A DNA stretch of 64,000 nucleotides from a candidate division FCPU426 bacterium (GTDB taxonomy: Bacteria > Oederibacteriota > Muellerivitia > Muellerivitales > Muellerivitaceae), in contig CAVYSE010000020.1 of NCBI GenBank assembly GCA_963771075.1, positions 64,001-128,000 on the forward strand. The letters run 5' to 3'. A model generated the notes under the pieces. The model was not told the origin of the DNA, did not search any database, and saw only the letters and a list, made by a program, of their open reading frames with translations. A program made the position numbers and the translations under genes. Below are positions 83-56,319 of the stretch, in pieces; positions within the stretch are counted from its first letter, which is position 1, and each line of letters opens with the position of its first letter.

Positions 83-355
83 CTAATCCCTTTCCCCGAA
101 TTTATTCAAAAATAAGGCCTGGATCGCCATGGAGGCCTCCGAGGCGTCATCCCCCTCAAAGACGAGCGTCAGTTCTTGCCCATAGCCGGCGGCAAGGGTC
201 ATCAAATTGATCAGGCTCTTGGCGTTCAGGCTTCCGCTGTTCCTTCGAATCAAGATGCGGCATTTGTATTGGGAGGTCGCCTTGACGAACGTAGCGGCGG
301 CGCGGATATGAAGACCGAGGCGGTTTAAGACTTTGACAGTTTTGGTGATTTCCAC
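83..355 (-). CDS. ptsH: HPr-family phosphocarrier protein (copy 1)
   Basis: 90 aa; NRLGLHIRAA (His15 motif) and NAKSLINLMTL (Ser46 motif); GTG start preceded by GAGG. Confidence 0.9.
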   Translation of the reverse strand: MEITKTVKVLNRLGLHIRAAATFVKATSQYKCRILIRRNSGSLNAKSLINLMTLAAGYGQELTLVFEGDDASEASMAIQALFLNKFGERD

Positions 356-1020: not shown

Positions 1021-1050
1021 TTGACATTTATTTGGGAAGGGGAGTAATGT
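1021..1050 (+). promoter_or_regulatory. Sigma70-type promoter for the sulfate operon leader
   Basis: Perfect TTGACA (1021-1026), 18-bp spacer, TAATGT (1045-1050); puts the start site at about 1057, just before motif copy 1. Confidence 0.7.
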
Positions 1051-1059
1051 TCCAACATC

Positions 1060-1130
1060 AAACGCGAGGCTTTAAGGTCCAACTTGCCCCGGCGTTTCCC
1101 GAAAGGGAAGAACAGGGTGCTAAAGCGGTT
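1060..1130 (+). ncRNA. Candidate riboswitch-like cis-regulatory RNA motif, copy 1
   Basis: GCGAGGCTTTA...CCAACTTGCCCCGGC-[TTTCCC GAAA GGGAAG]-AACAGGGTGCTAAAGCGGT; GCTTTA (1069-1074) can pair with TAAAGC (1121-1126). Confidence 0.75.
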
Positions 1131-1152
1131 AAGAGTTTAAGAGATTCTATCT

Positions 1153-1191
1153 AAACCCGATCCGCCCAAAGTGGACCGGGTTTTTTGTTTT
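1153..1191 (+). terminator. Intrinsic terminator after motif copy 1
   Basis: AACCCGATCCGC-CCAAA-GTGGACCGGGTT stem followed by TTTTGTTTT. Confidence 0.8.
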
Positions 1192-1266
1192 ACACCGAAA
1201 AACCCTTTAAAAACTAAGTTTTGCCCCACTGGTTCCTTGAACTGCGGGGAAGGCAAACATTGTTTG

Positions 1267-1351
1267 CCACCGGCGAGGCTTTATTAACCTACTTGCCCCG
1301 GCCGGCTTTCGTTGGATGTTTCAACGGAGGGAACAGGGACTAAAGCGGTGG
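1267..1351 (+). ncRNA. Candidate riboswitch-like cis-regulatory RNA motif, copy 2
   Basis: GCGAGGCTTTA...CCTACTTGCCCCGGC-[CTTTCGTTGGA/TTCAACGGAGG hairpin]-AACAGGGACTAAAGCGGT; GCTTTA (1278-1283)/TAAAGC (1341-1346), extended by CCACC/GGTGG. Confidence 0.75.
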
Positions 1352-1371
1352 AAGATTATTGGAACAACCAT

Positions 1372-1410
1372 AATCCCAAACCGCTGAAGCAAACGGTCTG
1401 GGATTTTTTT
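1372..1410 (+). terminator. Intrinsic terminator after motif copy 2
   Basis: AATCCCAAACCG...CGGTCTGGGATT stem running into a T7 tract. Confidence 0.8.
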
Positions 1411-1486
1411 ATTCCTAGAAGTTTCGATGTGGGGAGGATTGAGCAGTAAAAAGTTCAATTTTGTACGGCGGGATTTAACAGGCGGT

Positions 1487-1516
1487 GAAAAAGCCTTCAA
1501 CCGGCTTTTTCTTTCT
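1487..1516 (+). terminator. Additional terminator-like hairpin inside the leader
   Basis: GAAAAAGCC-TTCAACC-GGCTTTTTC followed by TTTCT; short GC core. Confidence 0.4.
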
Positions 1517-1551
1517 AGTGTGCGGGTCGCAGGCGACCCGTCCTAGCCCCT

Positions 1552-1668
1552 GGCTTTTACGGAACGTTACCAATCGCGGTTTTGGATGGTAACCCCCTGA
1601 AAGCACCAACTTGCCCCGGCCGGATTCGTTCCAGCTTTTGGAATGGACAAACAGGGAGCTAAAGCGGT
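1552..1668 (+). ncRNA. Candidate riboswitch-like cis-regulatory RNA motif, copy 3
   Basis: GGCTTTT-[inserted GTTACC/GGTAAC hairpin]-CCAACTTGCCCCGGC-[TTCGTTCCA/TGGAATGGA hairpin]-AACAGGGAGCTAAAGCGGT. Confidence 0.72.
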
Positions 1669-1690
1669 ATCGCGATGAAGACTTTTTCAT

Positions 1691-1721
1691 CCCGGCCCGC
1701 TTAAGCAGTGGGGCCGGGTTT
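1691..1721 (+). terminator. Intrinsic terminator after motif copy 3
   Basis: CCCGGCCCGCT-TAAGC-AGTGGGCCGGG stem then TTTT; contains CCGCTTAAGC, 9/10 complementary to motif GCTAAAGCGG. Confidence 0.7.
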
Positions 1722-1783
1722 ATGGCCCCGGGTGAACTGGACACCTTAAAAACCCATTAAATTTTTTAAAAAAGGGGCTAAAA

Positions 1784-3265
1784 ATGAAAAAGTTATTCGC
1801 TTATTGGTTGGTATTACTGGCGGGTTTATTCCTGACGACCGCCAGGGTTGGCGCGCAGGAACCATCTTCGGTTGGGAATTCGAAGCAGGATGCTCCTTCG
1901 ACGGATACCCCGGCGGCGGTCTCGGCTTCGGATATCGAAGCCCTGAACAACCGGCTCAACGCCCTGGAAAAGGGATCGGTCGTGTTGTCCACCGAGCATA
2001 ATTACCTCGATATTGGCACCCAAAAGGGCGATATCGTCTTTAAGATCGGCGCGGTAGTGCAGGGGGATTACCGGTCCTATTTCTACCCGGCTTCCAGTTA
2101 TGACGACAACCTGCCGATTGGGGCTGCGGGCGGCGGTGTCACGAATTTTGAGGAGGGGGCGACGGCGGCTTCGGTCAACAAATCCAGCAGTACCTTCCTG
2201 GACCGCAAGGTCCGGTTGGACCTGGTTGCCCTCTTTGACCAGACTGTGGGTTTGCGATACCAGGCCGAATTTGGCGCCACGGGTTACGCCATCCAGGACG
2301 CCTACGCCTTCGTAAAGGCGGACCCGGCTTTCCAATTCCAACTGGGAAAGTTCAAGGTGCCTATCGGCCTGGAACGCCTGCAAAACGACACGGATACTCT
2401 TTTTGCCGAGCGCGCCCTGCCCACCGACCTGGTCCCCAACCGTGACCTGGGCGGCCTTATCGGCGGGTCGGTTCATAATTACGCCCTCTACGCGGTGGCC
2501 TTGACCAACGGGACGCCCGACAATTACACGCCCAACAACGCCGACGACCAAAGCCTGACCGGCGGTAAGGAATTATCGGGAAGGGTTTTCCTGACGCCTT
2601 TCCAACCCACCGATTCCTTTCTCAAGAACCTTGGGGTTGGAATCTCGGGGTCCTGGGCCTGGAACGTGAGTTGGAACAGCAACGCCTATCCCAATTATTT
2701 CGTCACCTCCCTGGGCCAACAGCAATTCTTCGCCTATCGGACGGGCGTTTCCCCCCAGGGCGATTTTTACCACCTATCCCCCCAGGGCTACTTTTATAAC
2801 GGTCCCTTCGGATTGTTGGGAGAGTATGTCCAGTCCACCCAGAACGTCGGGACCTCCGCCAAGACTTCCGTGAGCCTCAATAACCAGGCCTTCCTGTTGC
2901 AGGCTTCATGGGTTATTGGCGGGAGGGCTTCCTACCAAGGCGCGGTCGCGGATAATGACTTGGATCTTTCCAAGGGCCGTTGGGGTGCTTTGGAGGTGGG
3001 CTTTCGGGTGCACCAATTGACCATCGACCCGAATGCCTTTAGCGCCACGGAAGCCTCGGATGTGGCGGCCACCAATTCGGCCCAGCAGGCCACGGCTTAC
3101 GGCGCGGGTTTGAACTGGATTTTCGACCCCCATTTCAAGCTGGTCTTCGATTGGGAGGAAACGGATTTCGTGGAAGGGACCCAGGTGACACCGAACATTA
3201 CCGGCACCGTTACGACCCTGCATCCCGAGGATGTTTTCACCATCCGGGCCCAGGCCAACATTTAA
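1784..3265 (+). CDS. OprO/OprP-family anion-selective porin (probably sulfate porin)
   Basis: Signal peptide, coiled-coil N-terminus, IQDAY...[13 protein letters not shown]...[17 protein letters not shown] and GRWGALEV motifs; first gene of the sulfate operon. Confidence 0.85.
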
Positions 3266-3282
3266 ATAATAAGGAGAAAAAC

Positions 3283-4311
3283 ATGAAAAAAATAAATCTT
3301 AGTCTCGGATTGCTGATGGGTCTTACCGCCGCTTCCTGGGTTTATGCCCAGGAGGCCCCAGTCGGGAAAACGGGGGGCGCGGTTAGGATTCTCAACGTGT
3401 CCTACGACCCTACGAGGGAATTTTACGCGGATTACGACAAGGTTTTCGCCGGCTACTGGAAAAAGAAAACGGGGCAGGATGTGACCGTGGACCTTTCCAA
3501 CGGGGGATCGGGCAAGCAGGCCCGGGCCATTATTGACGGCCTGGAAGCCGATGTGGCGACTTTGGGGCTTTCGGGCGATATCGACGCCATCGCGGCCAAA
3601 GCCCAGCTGCTTCCCGACGATTGGGAAAGCCGGTTGCCCGACCATAGCGCCCCCTATACCTCCACCATTGTTCTTTTGGTGCGCAAGGGGAACCCCAAGG
3701 CCATTAAGGATTGGGACGACCTGGTGAAACCCGGGGTGGCCGTGATCACTCCGAACCCGAAAACTTCCGGCGGCGGCCGATGGAACTTTCTGGCCGCCTG
3801 GGGATGGGCTCTTTCCAAATATGGAACGGAGGATAAAGCCAGGGAATTTGTAGGCAAGATCTACAAGAATGTCCCGGTGTTGGATTCAGGCGCGCGGGGT
3901 TCCACCACCACTTTTGCTGAAAGGGGCCTGGGAGACGTTTTGATCGCTTGGGAAAACGAGGCCTACCTGGCCGTCAACCAGTTGGGGAAGGACCAATTCG
4001 AGATTGTTTATCCATCCTCCAGCATTTTGGCCGAACCTTCAGTGGCCTGGGTGGACAAGAACGCCGCGAAACACGGTACGACCGAGGTGGCGGAGGCCTA
4101 CCTGAAATATCTCTACAACCCCGTGGGGCAGGACGTCATAGCCCGCAACTACTACCGGCCCCGGTCTAAAAAGGTCGAGGAGAAATACCGCAGCCAGTTT
4201 CCCGTGATCAAGCTCTTTACCGTCAACAAGGTGTTCGGTGGTTGGAAAAAAGCCCAGCCCGCCTATTTCAACGACGGCGGGGTCTTTGACCAAATCTACC
4301 AACCTAAATGA
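3283..4311 (+). CDS. sbp: Sulfate ABC transporter substrate-binding protein
   Basis: [43 protein letters not shown] motifs; AAGGAG RBS before ATG 3283. Confidence 0.95.
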
Positions 4312-4313
4312 AC

Positions 4314-4348
4314 CAGTTGGCAGTCCACAGTTCGCAGTTCGCAGTCAA
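4314..4348 (+). repeat. Degenerate heptamer tandem repeat (CAGTnnn x5)
   Basis: CAGTTGG CAGTCCA CAGTTCG CAGTTCG CAGTCAA directly after the sbp stop. Confidence 0.6.
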
Positions 4349-4454
4349 GCGGGTAACACCCTATTCCCCATGGAGTCTTTATCGAAGGGGTTATTTTCGG
4401 GAAGCCGGTTCATTGGGGGCCGGCTTTTCCCCAAACCAAAAAGGGTTGGAATCC

Positions 4455-4733
4455 ATGGCCATCATCGAATCCATACCGGTATTAAACCGCTTAGGGCTTC
4501 ATCTGCGGGCTGGGGCCGAATTGGTCAGGACTTGTTCCCGGTTCCAATGCCAGGTGAGGGTGGGGCATGGCGGAAGGTCGGCCAACGCGAAAAGCCTGAT
4601 CCAACTCTTAACCCTCGGCGCCCTTTATGGTACGGTACTGGAGTTTTCGGCCCAGGGCGAGGACGCACCGGAGGCCATCAGGGCGATCCAAAAGTTATTG
4701 AAATCTTGGGAGGAGTTGGAAATTGACGAATAA
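4455..4733 (+). CDS. ptsH: HPr-family phosphocarrier protein (copy 2), inside the sulfate operon
   Basis: MAIIESIPVLNRLGLHLRAG...ANAKSLIQLLTLGA...GEDA; His15 and Ser46 motifs present. Confidence 0.85.
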   Translation: MAIIESIPVLNRLGLHLRAGAELVRTCSRFQCQVRVGHGGRSANAKSLIQLLTLGALYGTVLEFSAQGEDAPEAIRAIQKLLKSWEELEIDE

Positions 4734-4742
4734 CAAATCATC

Positions 4743-5024
4743 TTTCACCACCAAACACTTCGGCCCGCAACCGAAGTGTCGATGACCAAGGCACCAAGAA
4801 CAACAAAGCCAATTAGATTAGGAACAACCGAAACAAAGGAATTGGGTTAGAACCGATAACAAAACTAAGATGTAATATTAACCACTAAGGCTCAAAGACA
4901 CCAAGTAAAGCAAAAGGTTTGGATTTACTTCGTTTTTCTTCTGCCAATCTAACGAAGTTCTTGGTGCCTTGGTGTCTTGGTGGTGAAAAAGAGAGTTAAG
5001 TGACTTGGCGTCTTGGTGGTGAAA
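4743..5024. repeat. REP/MITE-like inverted-repeat element built of CACCAAG(G/A) units
   Basis: Left arm TTTCACCACCAA[30-nt hairpin insert]ACCAAGGCACCAAGAAC mirrors right arm GTTCTTGGTGCCTTGGTGTCTTGGTGGTGAAA (4957-4988); extra arms at about 4880-4904 and 5004-5024. Confidence 0.65.
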
Positions 5025-5042
5025 AATTTTAGGTGGTATTAA

Positions 5043-5870
5043 ATGAATTCTAAATCTCCTGGTGTACTCCCGGGGTTCCGTCTCTCCATGGGCTACACCC
5101 TTTTTTACCTGGGCCTCATTGTTTTGATCCCCCTGGGGGCGATGGTATTAAAAACCACCCAGCTCACCTGGGTACAGTTCCTGGCGACGGTCCTGAGTCC
5201 CCGCGTACTGGCTTCTTTTCGGCTGACTTTCGGGTGTTCCATCATTGGGGCGGCCATCAATTCGGTTTTCGGGGCCGTCGTGGCCTGGGTCCTGGTCCGC
5301 TATACCTTTCCCGGGAAACGGCTTTTCGACGCCCTAGTGGACCTTCCTTTCGCCTTGCCCACGGCCGTGGCCGGCATCACCCTGACAGAACTCTATTCCC
5401 CCCAAGGTTGGATCGGCCGTTGGCTGATTCCCCTGGGTATCAAGGTGGCCTATACCCCCCTGGGTGTGGCGGTGGCCTTGACCTTTATAGGCCTTCCTTT
5501 CGTGGTCCGGACCCTTCAACCGGTCCTTGAGACGATGGATAAGGATATGGAGGAAGCGGCGGTCAGTTTAGGGGCGAACCGCTTTACGATCATTACCAAG
5601 GTGATTTTGCCCAGTCTCGTACCTGCCTGGATCACCGGGTTTTCCCTCGCATTCGCCAGGGCGGTGGGGGAGTACGGTTCGGTCGTGTTTATCTCGGGAA
5701 ACATGCCCATGAAGACCGAAATTACGCCCTTACTTATCATCTCAAAACTGGAACAATACGATTACGCCGGGGCCACGGCCCTGGGGGTGGTGATGCTGGT
5801 GATTTCATTTGCCATGCTGTTGACGGTGAATTGGCTTCAGGCCAAAACAGGCAAGCATCGAATCCATTAA
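5043..5870 (+). CDS. cysT: Sulfate ABC transporter permease CysT
   Basis: VLPGFRLSMG, DLPFALPTAVAG, EAA loop, ARAVGEYGSVVFISGN. Confidence 0.95.
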   Translation: MNSKSPGVLPGFRLSMGYTLFYLGLIVLIPLGAMVLKTTQLTWVQFLATVLSPRVLASFRLTFGCSIIGAAINSVFGAVVAWVLVRYTFPGKRLFDALVDLPFALPTAVAGITLTELYSPQGWIGRWLIPLGIKVAYTPLGVAVALTFIGLPFVVRTLQPVLETMDKDMEEAAVSLGANRFTIITKVILPSLVPAWITGFSLAFARAVGEYGSVVFISGNMPMKTEITPLLIISKLEQYDYAGATALGVVMLVISFAMLLTVNWLQAKTGKHRIH

Positions 5871-5887
5871 CATTAAAAGAGGAAGAT

Positions 5888-6802
5888 TTGACTCGAGAAA
5901 CGATTATTGTTATTTCTAAAGGAAATCGCGCCTCGCTGGACCCCAATCGGGGTATGACCGAGCCGGGATGGGTGAAGTTTACCCTGATCGGGATCTCCCT
6001 CCTGTTTTTAGGGCTTTTTTTGGTGATACCTTTGGCGGAAGTGTTTGTTTCGGCGCTCCAGAAGGGGATCGGCTTTTATTTCGACGCGATCCGGGACCCG
6101 GCCGCCCTTTCGGCCTTGAGGTTGACTCTCCTCACCGCGTTTTTCTCCGTTTTTTTCAATTTGATCTTCGGGTTGGCTTCAGCCTGGGCCATCACGCGGT
6201 TCGAATTTCCCGGCAAAAACCTGCTTATCACCTTGATCGACTTGCCTTTCACCGTCTCCCCGGTCGTGTCTGGCCTGATCTACGTGCTGCTCTTCGGTTT
6301 ACAAGGCTACCTTGGGCCCTGGGTCTTGTCCCACGGAATCCACATTATCTTCGCAGCGCCCGGTATCATCCTGGCCACGATTTTCGTGACCTTTCCCTTC
6401 GTGTCTAGGGAACTGATTCCCTTGATGCAGGAACTGGGCTCGGAAGAGGAACAAGCGGCTTTGGTTTTGGGTGCGAACGGATGGCAAATTTTTTGGCGGG
6501 TAACCTTGCCCAATATCCAGTGGGGCCTTCTCTATGGGGTCATTCTTTGTAACGCCAGGGCAATGGGGGAATTTGGGGCGGTATCGGTGGTTTCGGGCCA
6601 CATCCGGGGACTGACCAACACCCTGCCCTTGCATGTGGAAATTCTCTATAACGAATACAATTTTACGGCCGCTTTCGCAGTCGCTTCCTTATTGACCTTT
6701 TTGGCGCTGGTGACCCTGGTCGCCAAGGCGATCGTTGGCGCCCGCACCGTGCAAGAGAGGGAAATCCTTCCCATCTCCCATGAAAGCGAGCCTGCCCTAT
6801 GA
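5888..6802 (+). CDS. cysW: Sulfate ABC transporter permease CysW
   Basis: DLPFTVSPVVSGL, RELIPLMQ, NARAMGEFGAVSVVSGHIRG; start uncertain (TTG 5888 or ATG 5954). Confidence 0.93.
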   Translation: MTRETIIVISKGNRASLDPNRGMTEPGWVKFTLIGISLLFLGLFLVIPLAEVFVSALQKGIGFYFDAIRDPAALSALRLTLLTAFFSVFFNLIFGLASAWAITRFEFPGKNLLITLIDLPFTVSPVVSGLIYVLLFGLQGYLGPWVLSHGIHIIFAAPGIILATIFVTFPFVSRELIPLMQELGSEEEQAALVLGANGWQIFWRVTLPNIQWGLLYGVILCNARAMGEFGAVSVVSGHIRGLTNTLPLHVEILYNEYNFTAAFAVASLLTFLALVTLVAKAIVGARTVQEREILPISHESEPAL

Positions 6803-7842
6803 GTATCGAAGTCCGGGGGATCTCAAAAACCTTTAACGGTTTTCAAGCCGTGCGGGATGTCAGCCTGAAACTGGAAAGCGGGTCCCTGACCGCCCTGCTG
6901 GGCCCCTCGGGCTCGGGGAAAAGCACCCTGCTTCGCATGATCGCCGGGTTGGAAACCCCCAATTCGGGCGAGATCCACTTGACCGGCCGGGAAGCCACCT
7001 ATATTTCAGCTAAGGAACGCAATGTCGGGTTTGTTTTCCAGCATTACGCCCTTTTCAAGCACATGACCATCTTCGAAAACATCGCCTTCGGTTTAAGGGT
7101 CCGTAAATATGCGGAGAAGGACATCAAGGACAGGGTTTTCGAACTCCTCAGTCTTATCCAACTACAGGGCCTGGAAAACCGGTATCCATCCCAGCTTTCG
7201 GGAGGCCAGCGCCAAAGGGTGGCGGTCGCCCGCGCCCTTGCGCCTCGGCCGGAGGTTTTGCTATTGGACGAGCCCTTTGGGGCTTTGGACGCCAAGGTAC
7301 GGGAAGAATTAAGGGAGTGGATTTTAAAGCTCCACGAGGAAACCAACGTGACGACCCTTTTCGTGACTCACGACCAAAATGAGGCGCTGGAAGTGGCGGG
7401 CCGAATTCTGATTATGAACCAGGGAAGGATTGAGCAAGATGGCACTCCGCTTGAAATCTTCGACCAGCCAGCCACCCATTTCATCGCCCAGTTCGTGGGG
7501 GAGACCAACTATATTGACACGAAAATTAGCGAGAAGGGTTTGGCGGTGTGGGGGCCTTTCCGATTCATGGTTACCCCCTTCTTTAAATTGGGGCAGAAAG
7601 TGCGTATTTATTTTCGCCCCAATGACGTTTACATGACCGCTCAATTTGAGACCCTGCAGGTGAAGGCCAAGGTGCTTTCTATCCGTTTCAAGGGAACGAT
7701 GATGGAATACAAACTCGACGTGGGGGAAGAAAAGCAAATTATCGCTCAGGTACCCAAGGGCGTGGCCTTGGCCAGCGGGTTTTCCGAGGGGGCGGAGGTA
7801 TTCGCCGCCATTACCGCCTTCCACGTTTTTCCGCTGGATTAG
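6799..7842 (+). CDS. cysA: Sulfate ABC transporter ATP-binding protein
   Basis: GPSGSGKS, LSGGQRQR, LLLDEPFGALDAKVR, C-terminal TOBE-like region. Confidence 0.95.
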   Translation: MSIEVRGISKTFNGFQAVRDVSLKLESGSLTALLGPSGSGKSTLLRMIAGLETPNSGEIHLTGREATYISAKERNVGFVFQHYALFKHMTIFENIAFGLRVRKYAEKDIKDRVFELLSLIQLQGLENRYPSQLSGGQRQRVAVARALAPRPEVLLLDEPFGALDAKVREELREWILKLHEETNVTTLFVTHDQNEALEVAGRILIMNQGRIEQDGTPLEIFDQPATHFIAQFVGETNYIDTKISEKGLAVWGPFRFMVTPFFKLGQKVRIYFRPNDVYMTAQFETLQVKAKVLSIRFKGTMMEYKLDVGEEKQIIAQVPKGVALASGFSEGAEVFAAITAFHVFPLD

Positions 7843-7975
7843 GAATTCTTGATAACCCCTCCACTGGGGGTTGTGTTAGTCCTTAAAAATGTGTAATTTC
7901 ATAGGCCTTTAACGTAGAGGCTGGACTTTCCCGGGCGAAAAACCCAGGTTTAACCAAGACTATTATGGGGAGAAT

Positions 7976-8893
7976 TTGTTGAGCCAGCAGGAACCAAAAT
8001 CCTTTTCGCACCTGAAACAACTTGAAGCGGAGAGCCTGTTCATCATCCGGGAAGTCGTTTCGGAATTCAAAAAACCCGTCATGCTCTATTCGGTGGGGAA
8101 AGATTCTTCCGTCATGCTTCGCCTGGCCCAAAAGGCCTTCCACCCGGGCAAGATTCCCTTTCCCCTGATGCACGTGGACACAAGCTACAAGTTCCCCGAG
8201 ATGTACCAGTTCCGGGACAAATTGATCGCCGACCTGGGCGCCAAGCTTCTGGTGGAACGCAACGAGGATGCTATCTCGGCCGGTTCCAGTCCCTTCAAAT
8301 ACGGGGTGGATAAATGCTGCGCGCTGTTGAAGACCCAGGGACTGTTGGACGCCCTCACCAAGCACGGTTTTGACGCTGCCTTCGGCGGGGCGAGGCGGGA
8401 AGAGGAAAAATCCCGGGCGAAGGAAAGGGTTTATTCATTCCGGGATTCCTTCGGCCAGTGGGACCCCAAGAACCAGCGGCCCGAACTTTGGGACCTCTAT
8501 AACTCCAAGATCAACGAGGGGGAATCCATTAGGGTTTTCCCCCTTTCCAATTGGACTGAACTGGATATTTGGCTCTATATCGAGATGGAAAAGATTCCCG
8601 TGGTACCCATTTACTTTACCCACGAACGAAAGATCATCAAACGCAAGCAACTCCTGATTCCTTGGGCCCCCCATATCCCCCTTTTGCCGGGAGACGAAGT
8701 GAAACAGATGAGGGTTAGGTTCCGGTCCCTGGGATGTATGTCCTGCACGGGTGCCATCGAGTCCGAAGCCTCCAGCTTGCGGGATATCATCGAGGACCTG
8801 GTTTTGACCCGAAAGAGCGAGCGGGAAAATCGCATTATCGATCACGGCTCGGACAGTTCCATGGAGCAAAAGAAAAAAGAAGGATACTTCTAA
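7976..8893 (+). CDS. cysD: Sulfate adenylyltransferase subunit 2
   Basis: [55 protein letters not shown]. Confidence 0.97.
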
Positions 8894-8972
8894 AAGCAGT
8901 CGGCAGCCGACATCTCTAAAGACGTGAATGTGAAAAATTGTTTGTTAACGGTTAACTAAATTGGGAGTCGTA

Positions 8973-10242
8973 ATGACTATCGACGAGAAATCGGAAATCA
9001 GCTACGCGAACATGGGCCTCCTGCGGTTTTCCACCGCGGGTTCGGTGGATGACGGCAAGTCCACCTTGATCGGGCGGCTGCTTTTTGACTCCAAAAGCGT
9101 CTTTGAGGACCAATTGGAGGCCATTCGCAAGACCACCTCCAAAAAGGGAGGGGAAGAGATCGACCTGGCTCTCATCACGGACGGCCTTGCCGCCGAACGG
9201 GAGCAGGGTATCACGATCGACGTGGCCTACCGCTATTTCGCGACTCCCAAGCGCAAGTTTATCATCGCCGACACTCCCGGCCACGAACAATACACCCGCA
9301 ACATGGTCACGGGAGCCTCCACCTCCAACCTGGCGATCATCCTGCTGGATGCCCGTAACGGGGTTATGACCCAATCGAGGCGCCACGGTTTTATCGCAAA
9401 CCTTTTGGGCATCCCCCATCTGGTGGTCGCCATCAATAAGATGGACCTAGTGGATTATTCCCAGGAGGTATTCAACCGCATCCGCGCCGAGTTCGGGGCC
9501 TTCACGAAGGAAATTGGCGCGCCCGAGCCTATGATTATTCCCATTTCCGCGCTCAAGGGCGACAATGTGGTGGAAAAGAGCGGCGCCATGCCTTGGTACC
9601 AAGGGCCCGCGCTTTTGCATTATTTGGAAACCGTGGAGATTAACCGCGACCTGAACCAGGAGGATTTCCGCTTCGCGGTGCAGACCGTGATCCGGCCCAA
9701 CCTGGATTACCGGGGTTTCGCTGGCCGGATCGGCTCGGGCCGAATTCGCCGGGGGGATCGGGTGGTCGTTCTGCCCTCGGGGATCGAGACATCCGTCAGG
9801 GCTATCGACACTTTTGAGGGGGAAATCGAGGAAGCTTTCGCGCCCCTTTGCGTGACCCTGCGCTTGAAAGACGAGGTGGATTTGTCCCGAGGGGACATGC
9901 TCGTCCGCCCCGACAACCGGCCCCAAAGCGGGCCCCTCTTTACCGCCGATCTCTGCTGGATGGTGCAAGAGCCCTTGAACCTCAGGAAAAAGTATTCCCT
10001 CAAGCACACCACCCAGACTGTGAAAGCCATGGTGGTGGACATCGAGTATCGGACCAACATCAACACATTGGATAAGGAGAAAAGTGGATGAACTTGGGAT
10101 GAACGATATCGCCCGGGTCAAGGTCCAATCGCTCAAACCCCTCTATTTTGACCCTTACAAGAAGAACCGCAACACGGGCAATTTCATTCTGATCGATGAG
10201 CTGTCTAATAACACGGTGGCGGCAGGCATGATCGTCGGGTGA
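8973..10242 (+). CDS. cysN: Sulfate adenylyltransferase subunit 1 (GTPase), frameshifted near 10080
   Basis: [33 protein letters not shown]; after one extra A in the GAGAAAAGTG run the protein continues ...LGMNDIARV...[19 protein letters not shown] to 10242; no CysC domain. Confidence 0.9.
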
Positions 10243-55977: not shown

Positions 55978-56319
55978 GGGGGTGACCGGTTTCGACTGGG
56001 GAACTGAACTTTTGGGTGCGTGTCGAGGCGCCATCGCTCGTCAAACATGGCAACGGTTTAACTGCCGACAATCAGTTAGCTCTCGCCGCTTAAGCGGTTA
56101 GCGTTTTACCCTTGATGCCTATTAAGGGGATAGAACGTAAGCAGTAGGCTGGTCCGGATCAGGGTTGTTCCACCGATGGACGGACGAGAAACAAAGGGAC
56201 TGGCTCTCCGCCGGCCGCTCGGGAGCGAGCGGGGGGCGAGACTCTTTCCTGAGCTACGCACGTAGGGCCCATTACGGATGTTTTTCAGGACGTGGGTTCG
56301 ATTCCCACCACCTCCACCA
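55978..56319 (+). ncRNA. ssrA: tmRNA
   Basis: 5' GGGGGTGAC...TTCGAC; 3' GGACGTGGGTTCGATTCCCACCACCTCCACCA; tag reading frame 56064-56093 encodes ADNQLALAA*. Confidence 0.96.

Follow-up and report, generated by a model that had tools for sequence, protein, structure and literature searches.

The described RNAs closest to those reported here are riboswitches of two classes, SAM-II and SAM-V, that bind S-adenosylmethionine (SAM). In SAM-II (SAM_alpha, RF00521; metX, 2QWY), the invariant pocket comprises U10-U12, U20-C23, and G42-A47, with the base triples G8-G42-C23, U11-A45-U21, and U12-A46-U20 (PMC3764141; the same contacts in PMC3303485). In SAM-V (RF01826; 6FZ0), a P3 stem-loop and an A-rich strand follow helix P1, and SAM is proposed to close a short helix, P2a, over the regulatory strand (PMC6061858). 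Most SAM-II riboswitches are transcriptional (PMC6061858), and the mechanism has been studied mainly on translational ones (PMC6061858, PMC9373788). Serial arrangements are also known: PMC9481103 reports 44 SAM-II doublets and 149 SAM-II/SAM-V pairs, and its triplets include those of SAM-I, thiamine pyrophosphate, cyclic di-GMP, flavin mononucleotide, and other riboswitches, a SAM-II triplet not being among those listed. Here we describe three related units in series from a candidate division FCPU426 bacterium. The window analyzed is a stretch of 64,000 nucleotides (nt; assembly GCA_963771075.1, contig CAVYSE010000020.1, positions 64,001 to 128,000 of the forward strand), and positions below are those of the window. 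Within it, a 760-nt leader ahead of a sulfate-uptake operon contains three copies of a longer repeat. The sequence, conservation, covariation, and gene context of the units are direct observations; from them we infer the ligand, the triplex, the kinetics, and the direction of the response, and we consider it likely that each unit is a SAM-sensing OFF switch.

Homologs were gathered by DNA search, by scanning one genome of each species for an exact pattern, and with a covariance model (R2) built from 70 units, including copy 1 of the window. The 121 pattern hits gave 116 units after removal of loci L050 and L074, which have no 5' half, L040, which was mis-parsed, and two duplicates. Parsing of the 5' end failed for three of the 116, leaving 113; 104 have both the CCGC element described below and a parsed terminator; and 70 of the 83 units without long inserts were aligned. 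The scan pattern required most bases of UUGC and CUAAAGCGG, and the 5' half and P1 were parsed later, by a pattern that asked for UU. R2 and the DNA search located the RNA in 28 of 30 family genomes other than that of the window, and a single genome has up to 14 model matches. Among more distant genomes of the phylum, 10 of 68 have a match at E <= 0.001; the weakest of these may match in the terminator only. Two weak R2 matches in the genome of the window, L097 and L098, have no aptamer core and were rejected as terminator-only. The pattern scan yielded 49 stretches, whose titles name many Elusimicrobia and a few Firestonebacteria, Acidobacteria, or Proteobacteria.

The aptamer consensus begins with the 5' strand of P1, GAG or GG, G(C/A)UUUAA, a short loop, CCAAC, UUGC, CCC, and the 3' strand of P1, and continues in its 3' half with a variable P3 hairpin, AACA, and GGGN GCUAAA GCGG. 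This arrangement is an H-type pseudoknot, in which the strands of P1 lie on either side of loop L1 and P2 joins the 3' tail to the strand preceding the 3' side of P1. The pocket positions of SAM-II map one to one onto it, giving a pocket of the SAM-II/V kind: U11U12 and UUGC are present in all 113 parsed units, G8 in 109, U10 in 105, and GCUAAA in 105 (ACUAAA in 7, GAUAAA in 1). Two-sided covariation occurs at three of the four P1 pairs (CG/AU 39:25, GC/CG 44:25, CG/UA 55:12; n = 70), and the covariation score of the whole structure was reached by 0 of 500 shuffles. P2 is nearly invariant and hence covaries little; in the 70 aligned units P2a is 100% paired, and P2b with its extension 94.7%. 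One pair of the P2a CC:GG helix is C-G in 69 units and U.G in 1, the other is C-G in all 70, and no third P2a base pair was found in the homologous units. A P3 hairpin follows P1 in 106 of 113 units. The GG of P2a belongs to the antiterminator strand GCGG or, in the second units of L044 and L045, to the Shine-Dalgarno (SD) sequence. These two units (L044:2638-2761 and L045:2686-2799, at Elusimicrobia-labelled loci) stand behind a terminator-type unit and ahead of porin genes, and end in GCUAAAA(AA)GGAG directly before an ATG, with the SD sequence within P2a. This translational ending, typical of SAM-II/V, ties the motif to that family.

A different closed state had been proposed in a first-pass annotation made from the window sequence. 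It described the conserved 3' ends of the motif, AAAGCGGT, which we find at 1122, 1342, and 1661, and suggested that their AAAGC pairs with an upstream GCTTT. That complementarity is present only in copies 1 and 2 (GCTTT at 1069 and 1278); the counterpart in copy 3 is GATTT at 1472, and the GCTTT sequences at 1504, 1553, and 1634 lie in its insert or its P3 hairpin. Such a simple GCUUU:AAAGC helix, in competition with the antiterminator, could form transiently, and 83 of 113 units have the necessary complementarity. Yet its C:G pair is broken in 15 of 70 units and a U:A pair in 7, never with compensation; 500 of 500 shuffles score as high; and its bases are accounted for by the SAM-II triplex (PMC3764141). 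We regard this helix as extremely improbable as the closed state, and favor the pseudoknot. Read-through upon mutation of GCTTTA, which the annotation had predicted, should still occur, by way of pocket loss.

The motif is a SAM-II/V-type variant that was previously uncatalogued. Like SAM-II (PMC3764141, PMC3303485), it combines an H-type pseudoknot, the G8, UUU, UUGC, and GCUAAA pocket, a CC:GG P2a of 2 base pairs (bp), and three bases between P2a and UUGC with a terminator that usually follows and with sulfur and methionine genes downstream. Unlike SAM-II, it has a P2 about 3 bp longer (CCC/GGG, with UCC/GCGA and CUC/GAG variants), an L1 longer by GAG or GG, an obligatory P3 region of 5-72 nt, L1 inserts (38-129 nt) in some units, AGC in place of AAA behind the pocket, an antiterminator of stereotyped two-helix form, and as many as 14 model matches in one genome. 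With SAM-V (PMC6061858) it shares the pocket, the P3 stem-loop followed by an A-rich strand, and a switch that would work through SAM-dependent P2a. However, SAM-V is translational, with its SD sequence occluded directly in P2a, whereas here P2a holds the antiterminator strand, and unit 3 would control translation indirectly, by a relay of three strands some 100 nt downstream. The SAM-II long loops RNAs (RF01726; Weinberg 2010, PMC2864571) are likewise SAM-II homologs with long inserts that the standard model misses, but they are known from Bacteroidetes and marine samples, and RF01726 has no match at these loci.

The longer P2 and L1, the AGC after the pocket, and the large inserts are probably why the RF00521, RF01726, and RF01826 models miss the motif. 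Whole-genome searches with these models gave no match at these loci, and six loci with short or divergent units had none at E <= 5. Rfam scans of the window returned only the transfer-messenger RNA (tmRNA) gene at 55978-56319 (+; RF00023, 171 bits), with nothing above chance-level matches in the leader. A literature search, with subscription papers and most supplements outside its reach, found no description of the motif, of Elusimicrobia SAM riboswitches, or of a SAM-II triplet, and the accessible part of PMC12452182 does not mention Elusimicrobia. The RNA is a family-wide pseudoknot of this uncatalogued type and, judging from its pocket bases, would probably bind SAM.

The same fold and switch might instead respond to a relative of SAM or to another metabolite of sulfur status (S-adenosylhomocysteine, decarboxylated SAM, methylthioadenosine, or phosphoadenosine phosphosulfate/adenosine phosphosulfate), at least in copies with U10G or G42A. 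U10G recurs in 8 of 113 parsed units and G42A in 7, five of these at array position 2; aptamer 2 of the window is such a pocket-adjacent variant, with A at the G42 position and CCUAC in place of CCAAC. These substitutions, the longer P2 and L1, and a C opposite A47 depart from SAM-II/V; moreover, the regulon is biased toward taking up sulfate and sulfonate and making cysteine, an ordinary SAM-I riboswitch is present elsewhere in the genome, and ligand-switched SAM-I variants exist (PMC10853860). Nevertheless, U11 and U21, which sense the sulfonium, U44, which binds adenine, and A47, which binds the amino acid, are intact in 113 of 113 units, a count favored by the search, and metY-cysK-metX-metW, found behind units in this genome, is a typical SAM-riboswitch target set. 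We consider a ligand other than SAM unlikely.

Each aptamer is followed by a hairpin containing a complement of its 3' end. These complements, first reported in the annotation, were confirmed: CCGC at 1162-1165, ACCGCT at 1380-1385, and CCGCTTAAGC at 1697-1706, the last being 9/10 complementary to GCTAAAGCGG. The predicted terminators of units 1 and 2 have full U-tracts; terminator 3 is a poor intrinsic terminator, having only TTTATGGC (1719-1726) after its stem. Nor are the three hairpins otherwise dissimilar, as had been thought; they follow a common plan, CCC-N3-CCGC...GG-N2-(C/T)GGG, with AAA or AAT in front of it in copies 1 and 2. The CCGC 4-mer alone says little: the + strand of the window has 327 of them. 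At 21-42 nt past the aptamer, exact CCGC is present in 108 of 116 units (dinucleotide-shuffle mean 38.6, maximum 51), which shows that this part of the antiterminator is conserved in homologs, and four of the remaining eight are G.U-compatible (CCGU in three, CUGC in one). Other terminator-like hairpins of the genome have CCGC in the 5' arm or loop in 79 of 577 cases. Within the terminator, only 53 of 104 units have a perfect GCGG as the partner of CCGC; 30 have GUGG, and in 21 the partner is partly unpaired. Among the 70 aligned units, the G of CCGC has a pairing partner in the aptamer in 68 and in the terminator column in 48. Because the units share ancestry, this asymmetry, in which CCGC is kept while its terminator partner varies, is a stronger argument than the counts. 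Changes counted on a tree (2 for CCGC and 24 for its terminator partner, with 1 for CCC and 6 for GGG as controls) agree with this, but alignment gaps close to the loop inflate the numbers, and they are not relied on.

The antiterminator is larger than first described: GCGG:CCGC pairing is real, but a covarying inner helix had been missed. This helix takes the terminator's lowest 5' bases and occurs in compensatory forms, GUUUA/UAAAC (20), GAUUA/UAAUC (16), and others; chimeric platforms, with halves swapped between units, fold at -10.4 vs -14.3 kcal/mol, a cost of about 4 kcal/mol. The minimum free energy fold of the pre-termination fragment contains GCGG:CCGC in 104 of 104 units and the inner helix also in 90. 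Extension past GCGG is weak: the base that follows it and the one preceding CCGC form a pair in 50 of 108 units (42 Watson-Crick vs 27.8 shuffled), the two positions after that show chance-level pairing, and the three bases of the AAA on the 5' side of GCGG are paired in no more than 64, 46, and 32 of 108. U-tracts have at least 5 of 8 U in 94 of 104 units. Computationally, then, the platform is transcriptional, a terminator with a mutually exclusive, conserved antiterminator that uses the aptamer 3' strand. The first units of L045, L048, and L085 are short variants with G(U/C)CAGC for CCGC, which by eye could still pair with AGCGGC around one bulged A.

If the CCGC match were inherited rather than functional, the aptamers might bind SAM while the terminators behaved as nearly constitutive attenuators, or the units might make small RNAs. 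There is precedent for such behavior, since a Sinorhizobium meliloti terminator behind a SAM-II aptamer restricts expression regardless of the riboswitch (PMC9373788) and the linker of a Pelagibacter tandem blocks SAM binding by the SAM-II domain (PMC11508383); the terminator is also the stabler fold in copies 1 and 3. Against this stand the retention of CCGC where pairing in its own hairpin is poor, the covariation of an inner helix that makes sense only in the antiterminator, and the fact that an uptake operon behind three such terminators in a row would be nearly silent. We judge constitutive attenuation very unlikely, and regulated termination remains our preferred explanation.

Folding calculations address how the two states compete. 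The annotation had asked whether the antiterminator is energetically competitive. For copy 2 it is, the platform folding at -15.8 kcal/mol as antiterminator vs -15.1 kcal/mol as terminator, but copies 1 (-10.9 vs -19.7 kcal/mol) and 3 (-17.8 vs -22.6 kcal/mol) favor the terminator. When whole units were folded length by length, the antiterminator probability was at least 0.99 throughout for copy 2; for copy 3 it was at least 0.91 from 1706 to 1724 and 0.01-0.12 earlier; and for copy 1 it was unstable (0.05-1.00), with the terminator prevailing at full length. With the aptamer 3' strand masked, the terminator reached 0.94-1.00 in all three copies. The OFF logic suggested earlier, in which the ligand-bound motif frees the terminator and the free motif invades it, is supported by the pairing asymmetry, the covarying inner helix, and folding, although the closed fold drawn for it was wrong.

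Several points weigh against the switch as we describe it. The terminator fold wins by 8.8 kcal/mol in copy 1 and 4.8 kcal/mol in copy 3, and loses by 0.7 kcal/mol in copy 2; as isolated helices, terminators average -20.1 vs -14.3 kcal/mol for antiterminators; and copy 3 folds OFF when unconstrained. The core GCGG:CCGC helix hardly varies at all, and its covariation does not exceed that of shuffles (59/500). Conservation of the aptamer core is partly built in, as the search patterns demanded most core bases, and the units are linked by descent and duplication, so that counts are not independent. ViennaRNA cannot fold the pseudoknot, and the "bound" state was mimicked by forcing bases unpaired. 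The thresholds of RF00521, RF01826, and RF01726 are not reached, with no match at E <= 10 in 950-1800. Copy 2, with G42A, or copy 3, with a terminator-like hairpin in its insert, could be weakened, and the ribosome-site relay described below is absent or undetected in half of the gene-proximal units. As the terminator is usually favored at equilibrium, switching must be kinetic, that is, co-transcriptional. Kinetic control is usual for transcriptional riboswitches.

In the mechanism we propose, binding of SAM would dock the UUU of L1 on the UUGC/GCUAAA helix as the third strand of a triplex, and P2a, formed by CC and the last GG of GCGG, would lock the GCGG strand away. With GCGG sequestered, the terminator would fold and RNA polymerase would stop. 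Without SAM, P2a would be open, GCGG would pair with CCGC in the upper 5' arm of the terminator, and the inner helix would capture the terminator's lowest base pairs, allowing polymerase to read through. Units 1 and 2, which have full U-tracts, would act on transcription.

Modeling suggests that unit 3 probably acts mainly or also on translation, by hiding the ribosome-binding site (RBS). In its bound state, the hairpin would form and leave a GGCCCC sequence (Table 1) free to cover the AAGGGG RBS; in the antiterminator state, the freed 3' arm of the hairpin would capture GGCCCC and expose the RBS. Between the bound model and the antiterminator model, the computed probability of GGCCCC:SD pairing falls from 1.00 to 0.00, and the computed cost of opening the SD sequence from 9.5 to 2.4 kcal/mol. 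None of 43 internal units has a weak U-tract; 6 of 33 last units and 8 of 28 single ones do. Likewise, none of the 43 internal units has a GGGG(U/C)C arm, which is present in 18 of the 61 last or single units and is followed by an anti-SD sequence in 17 of these 18. Among 50 gene-proximal units, the SD sequence is at least 1.5 kcal/mol harder to open in the bound model in 32 (21% of 300 shuffles) and at least 3 kcal/mol harder in 19 (8% of 300 shuffles); 25 of the 50 passed a strict triad test. The relay sequences vary by unit, for example GGGUCCC in L030, GCCUCCU/AGGAGGC in L036, and CCUUUU/GAAAGG in the metY array of this genome. The predicted arrangement resembles the tandem SAM-II/SAM-II and SAM-II/SAM-V bi-mechanism riboswitches (PMC9481103), in which units are independent and serial, the upstream ones have terminators, and the last controls the RBS; unlike the tandems described there, three units are present here, and the last keeps a terminator-type platform that would be rewired to an anti-SD sequence. 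At high SAM, three units in series would shut off sulfate uptake and activation steeply and tightly.

Table 1. Features of the leader and the operon behind it (window positions)
Feature	Position	Strand	Details
Predicted sigma-70-type promoter	1021..1050	+	TTGACA, 18 nt, TAATGT; ~10 nt 5' of copy 1
Aptamer 1, SAM-II/V-like pseudoknot	1061..1128	+	R2 121 bits (copy in training set); P1 1061-1065/1092-1096; L1 GCUUU 1069-1073; P3 hairpin in 1097-1110; P2 5' strand CCAACUUGCCCC 1079-1090, 3' strand GGGUGCUAAAGCGG 1115-1128
Antiterminator 1 (predicted)	1125..1165	+	GCGG 1125-1128:CCGC 1162-1165; inner helix GUUUA 1135-1139:UAAAC 1152-1156
Intrinsic terminator 1 (predicted)	1153..1190	+	stem 1153-1183, U-tract to 1190
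Aptamer 2	1270..1348	+	P1 1270-1274/1301-1305; L1 GCUUU 1278-1282; P2 1288-1299/1336-1348
Antiterminator 2 (predicted)	1344..1386	+	AGCGGU:ACCGCU 1380-1385; inner helix GAUUAU 1354-1359:AUAAUC 1370-1375
Intrinsic terminator 2 (predicted)	1372..1412	+	stem 1372-1405, U-tract to 1412
Aptamer 3	1466..1667	+	P1 CGGC 1466-1469/GCCG 1619-1622; L1 GAUUU 1472-1476; P2 1606-1617/1654-1667
Structured insert in L1 of copy 3	1477..1605	+	129 nt; terminator-like hairpin 1487-1511
Antiterminator 3 (predicted)	1662..1702	+	AAGCGG:CCGCUU 1697-1702; inner helix GAUGAA 1674-1679:UUCAUC 1686-1691
Terminator-like hairpin 3	1691..1726	+	stem 1691-1718, degenerate U-tract UUUAUGGC
Predicted anti-SD sequence GGCCCC	1724..1729	+	pairs with hairpin-3 3' arm GGGGCC (1710-1715) or RBS (GGGGCU)
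RBS AAGGGG(CU) and ATG (1784) of porin gene	1772..1786	+
Putative regulated operon	1784..10091	+	co-transcription inferred from gene order

The operon comprises, in order, genes for an OprO/P-family porin (1784-3265), a sulfate-binding protein, and an HPr-family protein, followed by cysT, cysW, cysA, cysD, and cysN. The HPr-family gene lies at 4308-4733 (+), between sbp and cysT, and a second gene of this family lies upstream of the leader on the opposite strand, at 83-355 (-). The predicted promoter was not among the matches of a strict promoter scan. A TTGACA-16/18-TAnnnT pattern within 60 nt of P1 precedes 45 of 71 first or single units vs 0 of 42 internal units, which indicates that the arrays are probably single leaders. 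The 71 arrays comprise 35 single, 29 double, and 7 triple ones, sizes that are lower bounds as the loci are of limited length. In a peat metatranscriptome, a single 182-nt contig covers 1252-1433 at depth 3; it gives neither ends nor a level and is not taken as evidence.

The same genome has two more copies in tandem (G000:C14:71152-71490 (-), L091) ahead of metY-cysK-metX-metW; the first has G at the U10 pocket position, and the second a predicted anti-SD relay. The ordinary SAM-I riboswitch (72 bits) lies elsewhere, at G000:C5:67866-67997 (L131), and the gene behind it resembles, by eye, one for a threonine-synthase-type pyridoxal phosphate enzyme. The genome would use two SAM riboswitch folds, SAM-I and the SAM-II/V-like RNA. 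Across homologs, the genes behind units encode porins, peroxiredoxin, MetY, Sbp, CysT, CysK, DsrE, ExbB, a TauB/SsuB-like ATPase, and DUF3034 proteins, with 8 of 28 scanned downstream proteins lacking a Pfam match. As in SAM-II/V, sulfur and methionine genes lie downstream (a sulfate ATP-binding cassette transporter with cysDN, metY-cysK-metX-metW, sbp, cysT, cysK, DsrE). A 1-Cys peroxiredoxin gene very often stands behind a double unit (L016, L019, L021, L022, L026-L029, L033, L034, L036, L037), and at several of these loci a third unit and the porin gene come after it.

Owing to the 129-nt L1 insert, copy 3 starts at 1466 (about 1465) rather than near 1600. The insert folds at -53.6 kcal/mol and is present once in the genome, so it is not a repeat; in the corresponding unit of a same-genus genome (L014), the two halves are only 5 nt apart. 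Inserts of 38-129 nt occupy this spot in 17 of 113 units. The nearest relative (L013, leader 98% identical) shares the copy-3 insert and has a different, 105-nt insert in copy 1. Both inserts begin with AACAGGCGG and contain CCCCTG, as does one insert of L031. The differences among relatives suggest that L1 inserts are gained and lost quickly, on a common plan.

A broader picture can be offered only tentatively, and we judge it somewhat less probable than its negation. It is that a distinct SAM-II/V subclass with an extended triplex serves as the main sulfur regulator of the whole family; that its arrays consist of specialised modules, upstream copies terminating and the gene-proximal copy occluding the RBS through a three-strand relay; and that U10G, G42A, and the inserts give the copies differing affinities or ligands, and thereby a graded readout of sulfur. 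The finding extends the SAM-II/V fold to poorly known phyla, by a variant that Rfam misses, and its more than 100 units would offer a well-aligned natural example of a SAM-II-type pseudoknot driving a terminator. The two-helix antiterminator and the terminator-to-RBS relay offer exact, testable mutations, and the modular triple array may serve as a compact model for steep, two-level gene control.

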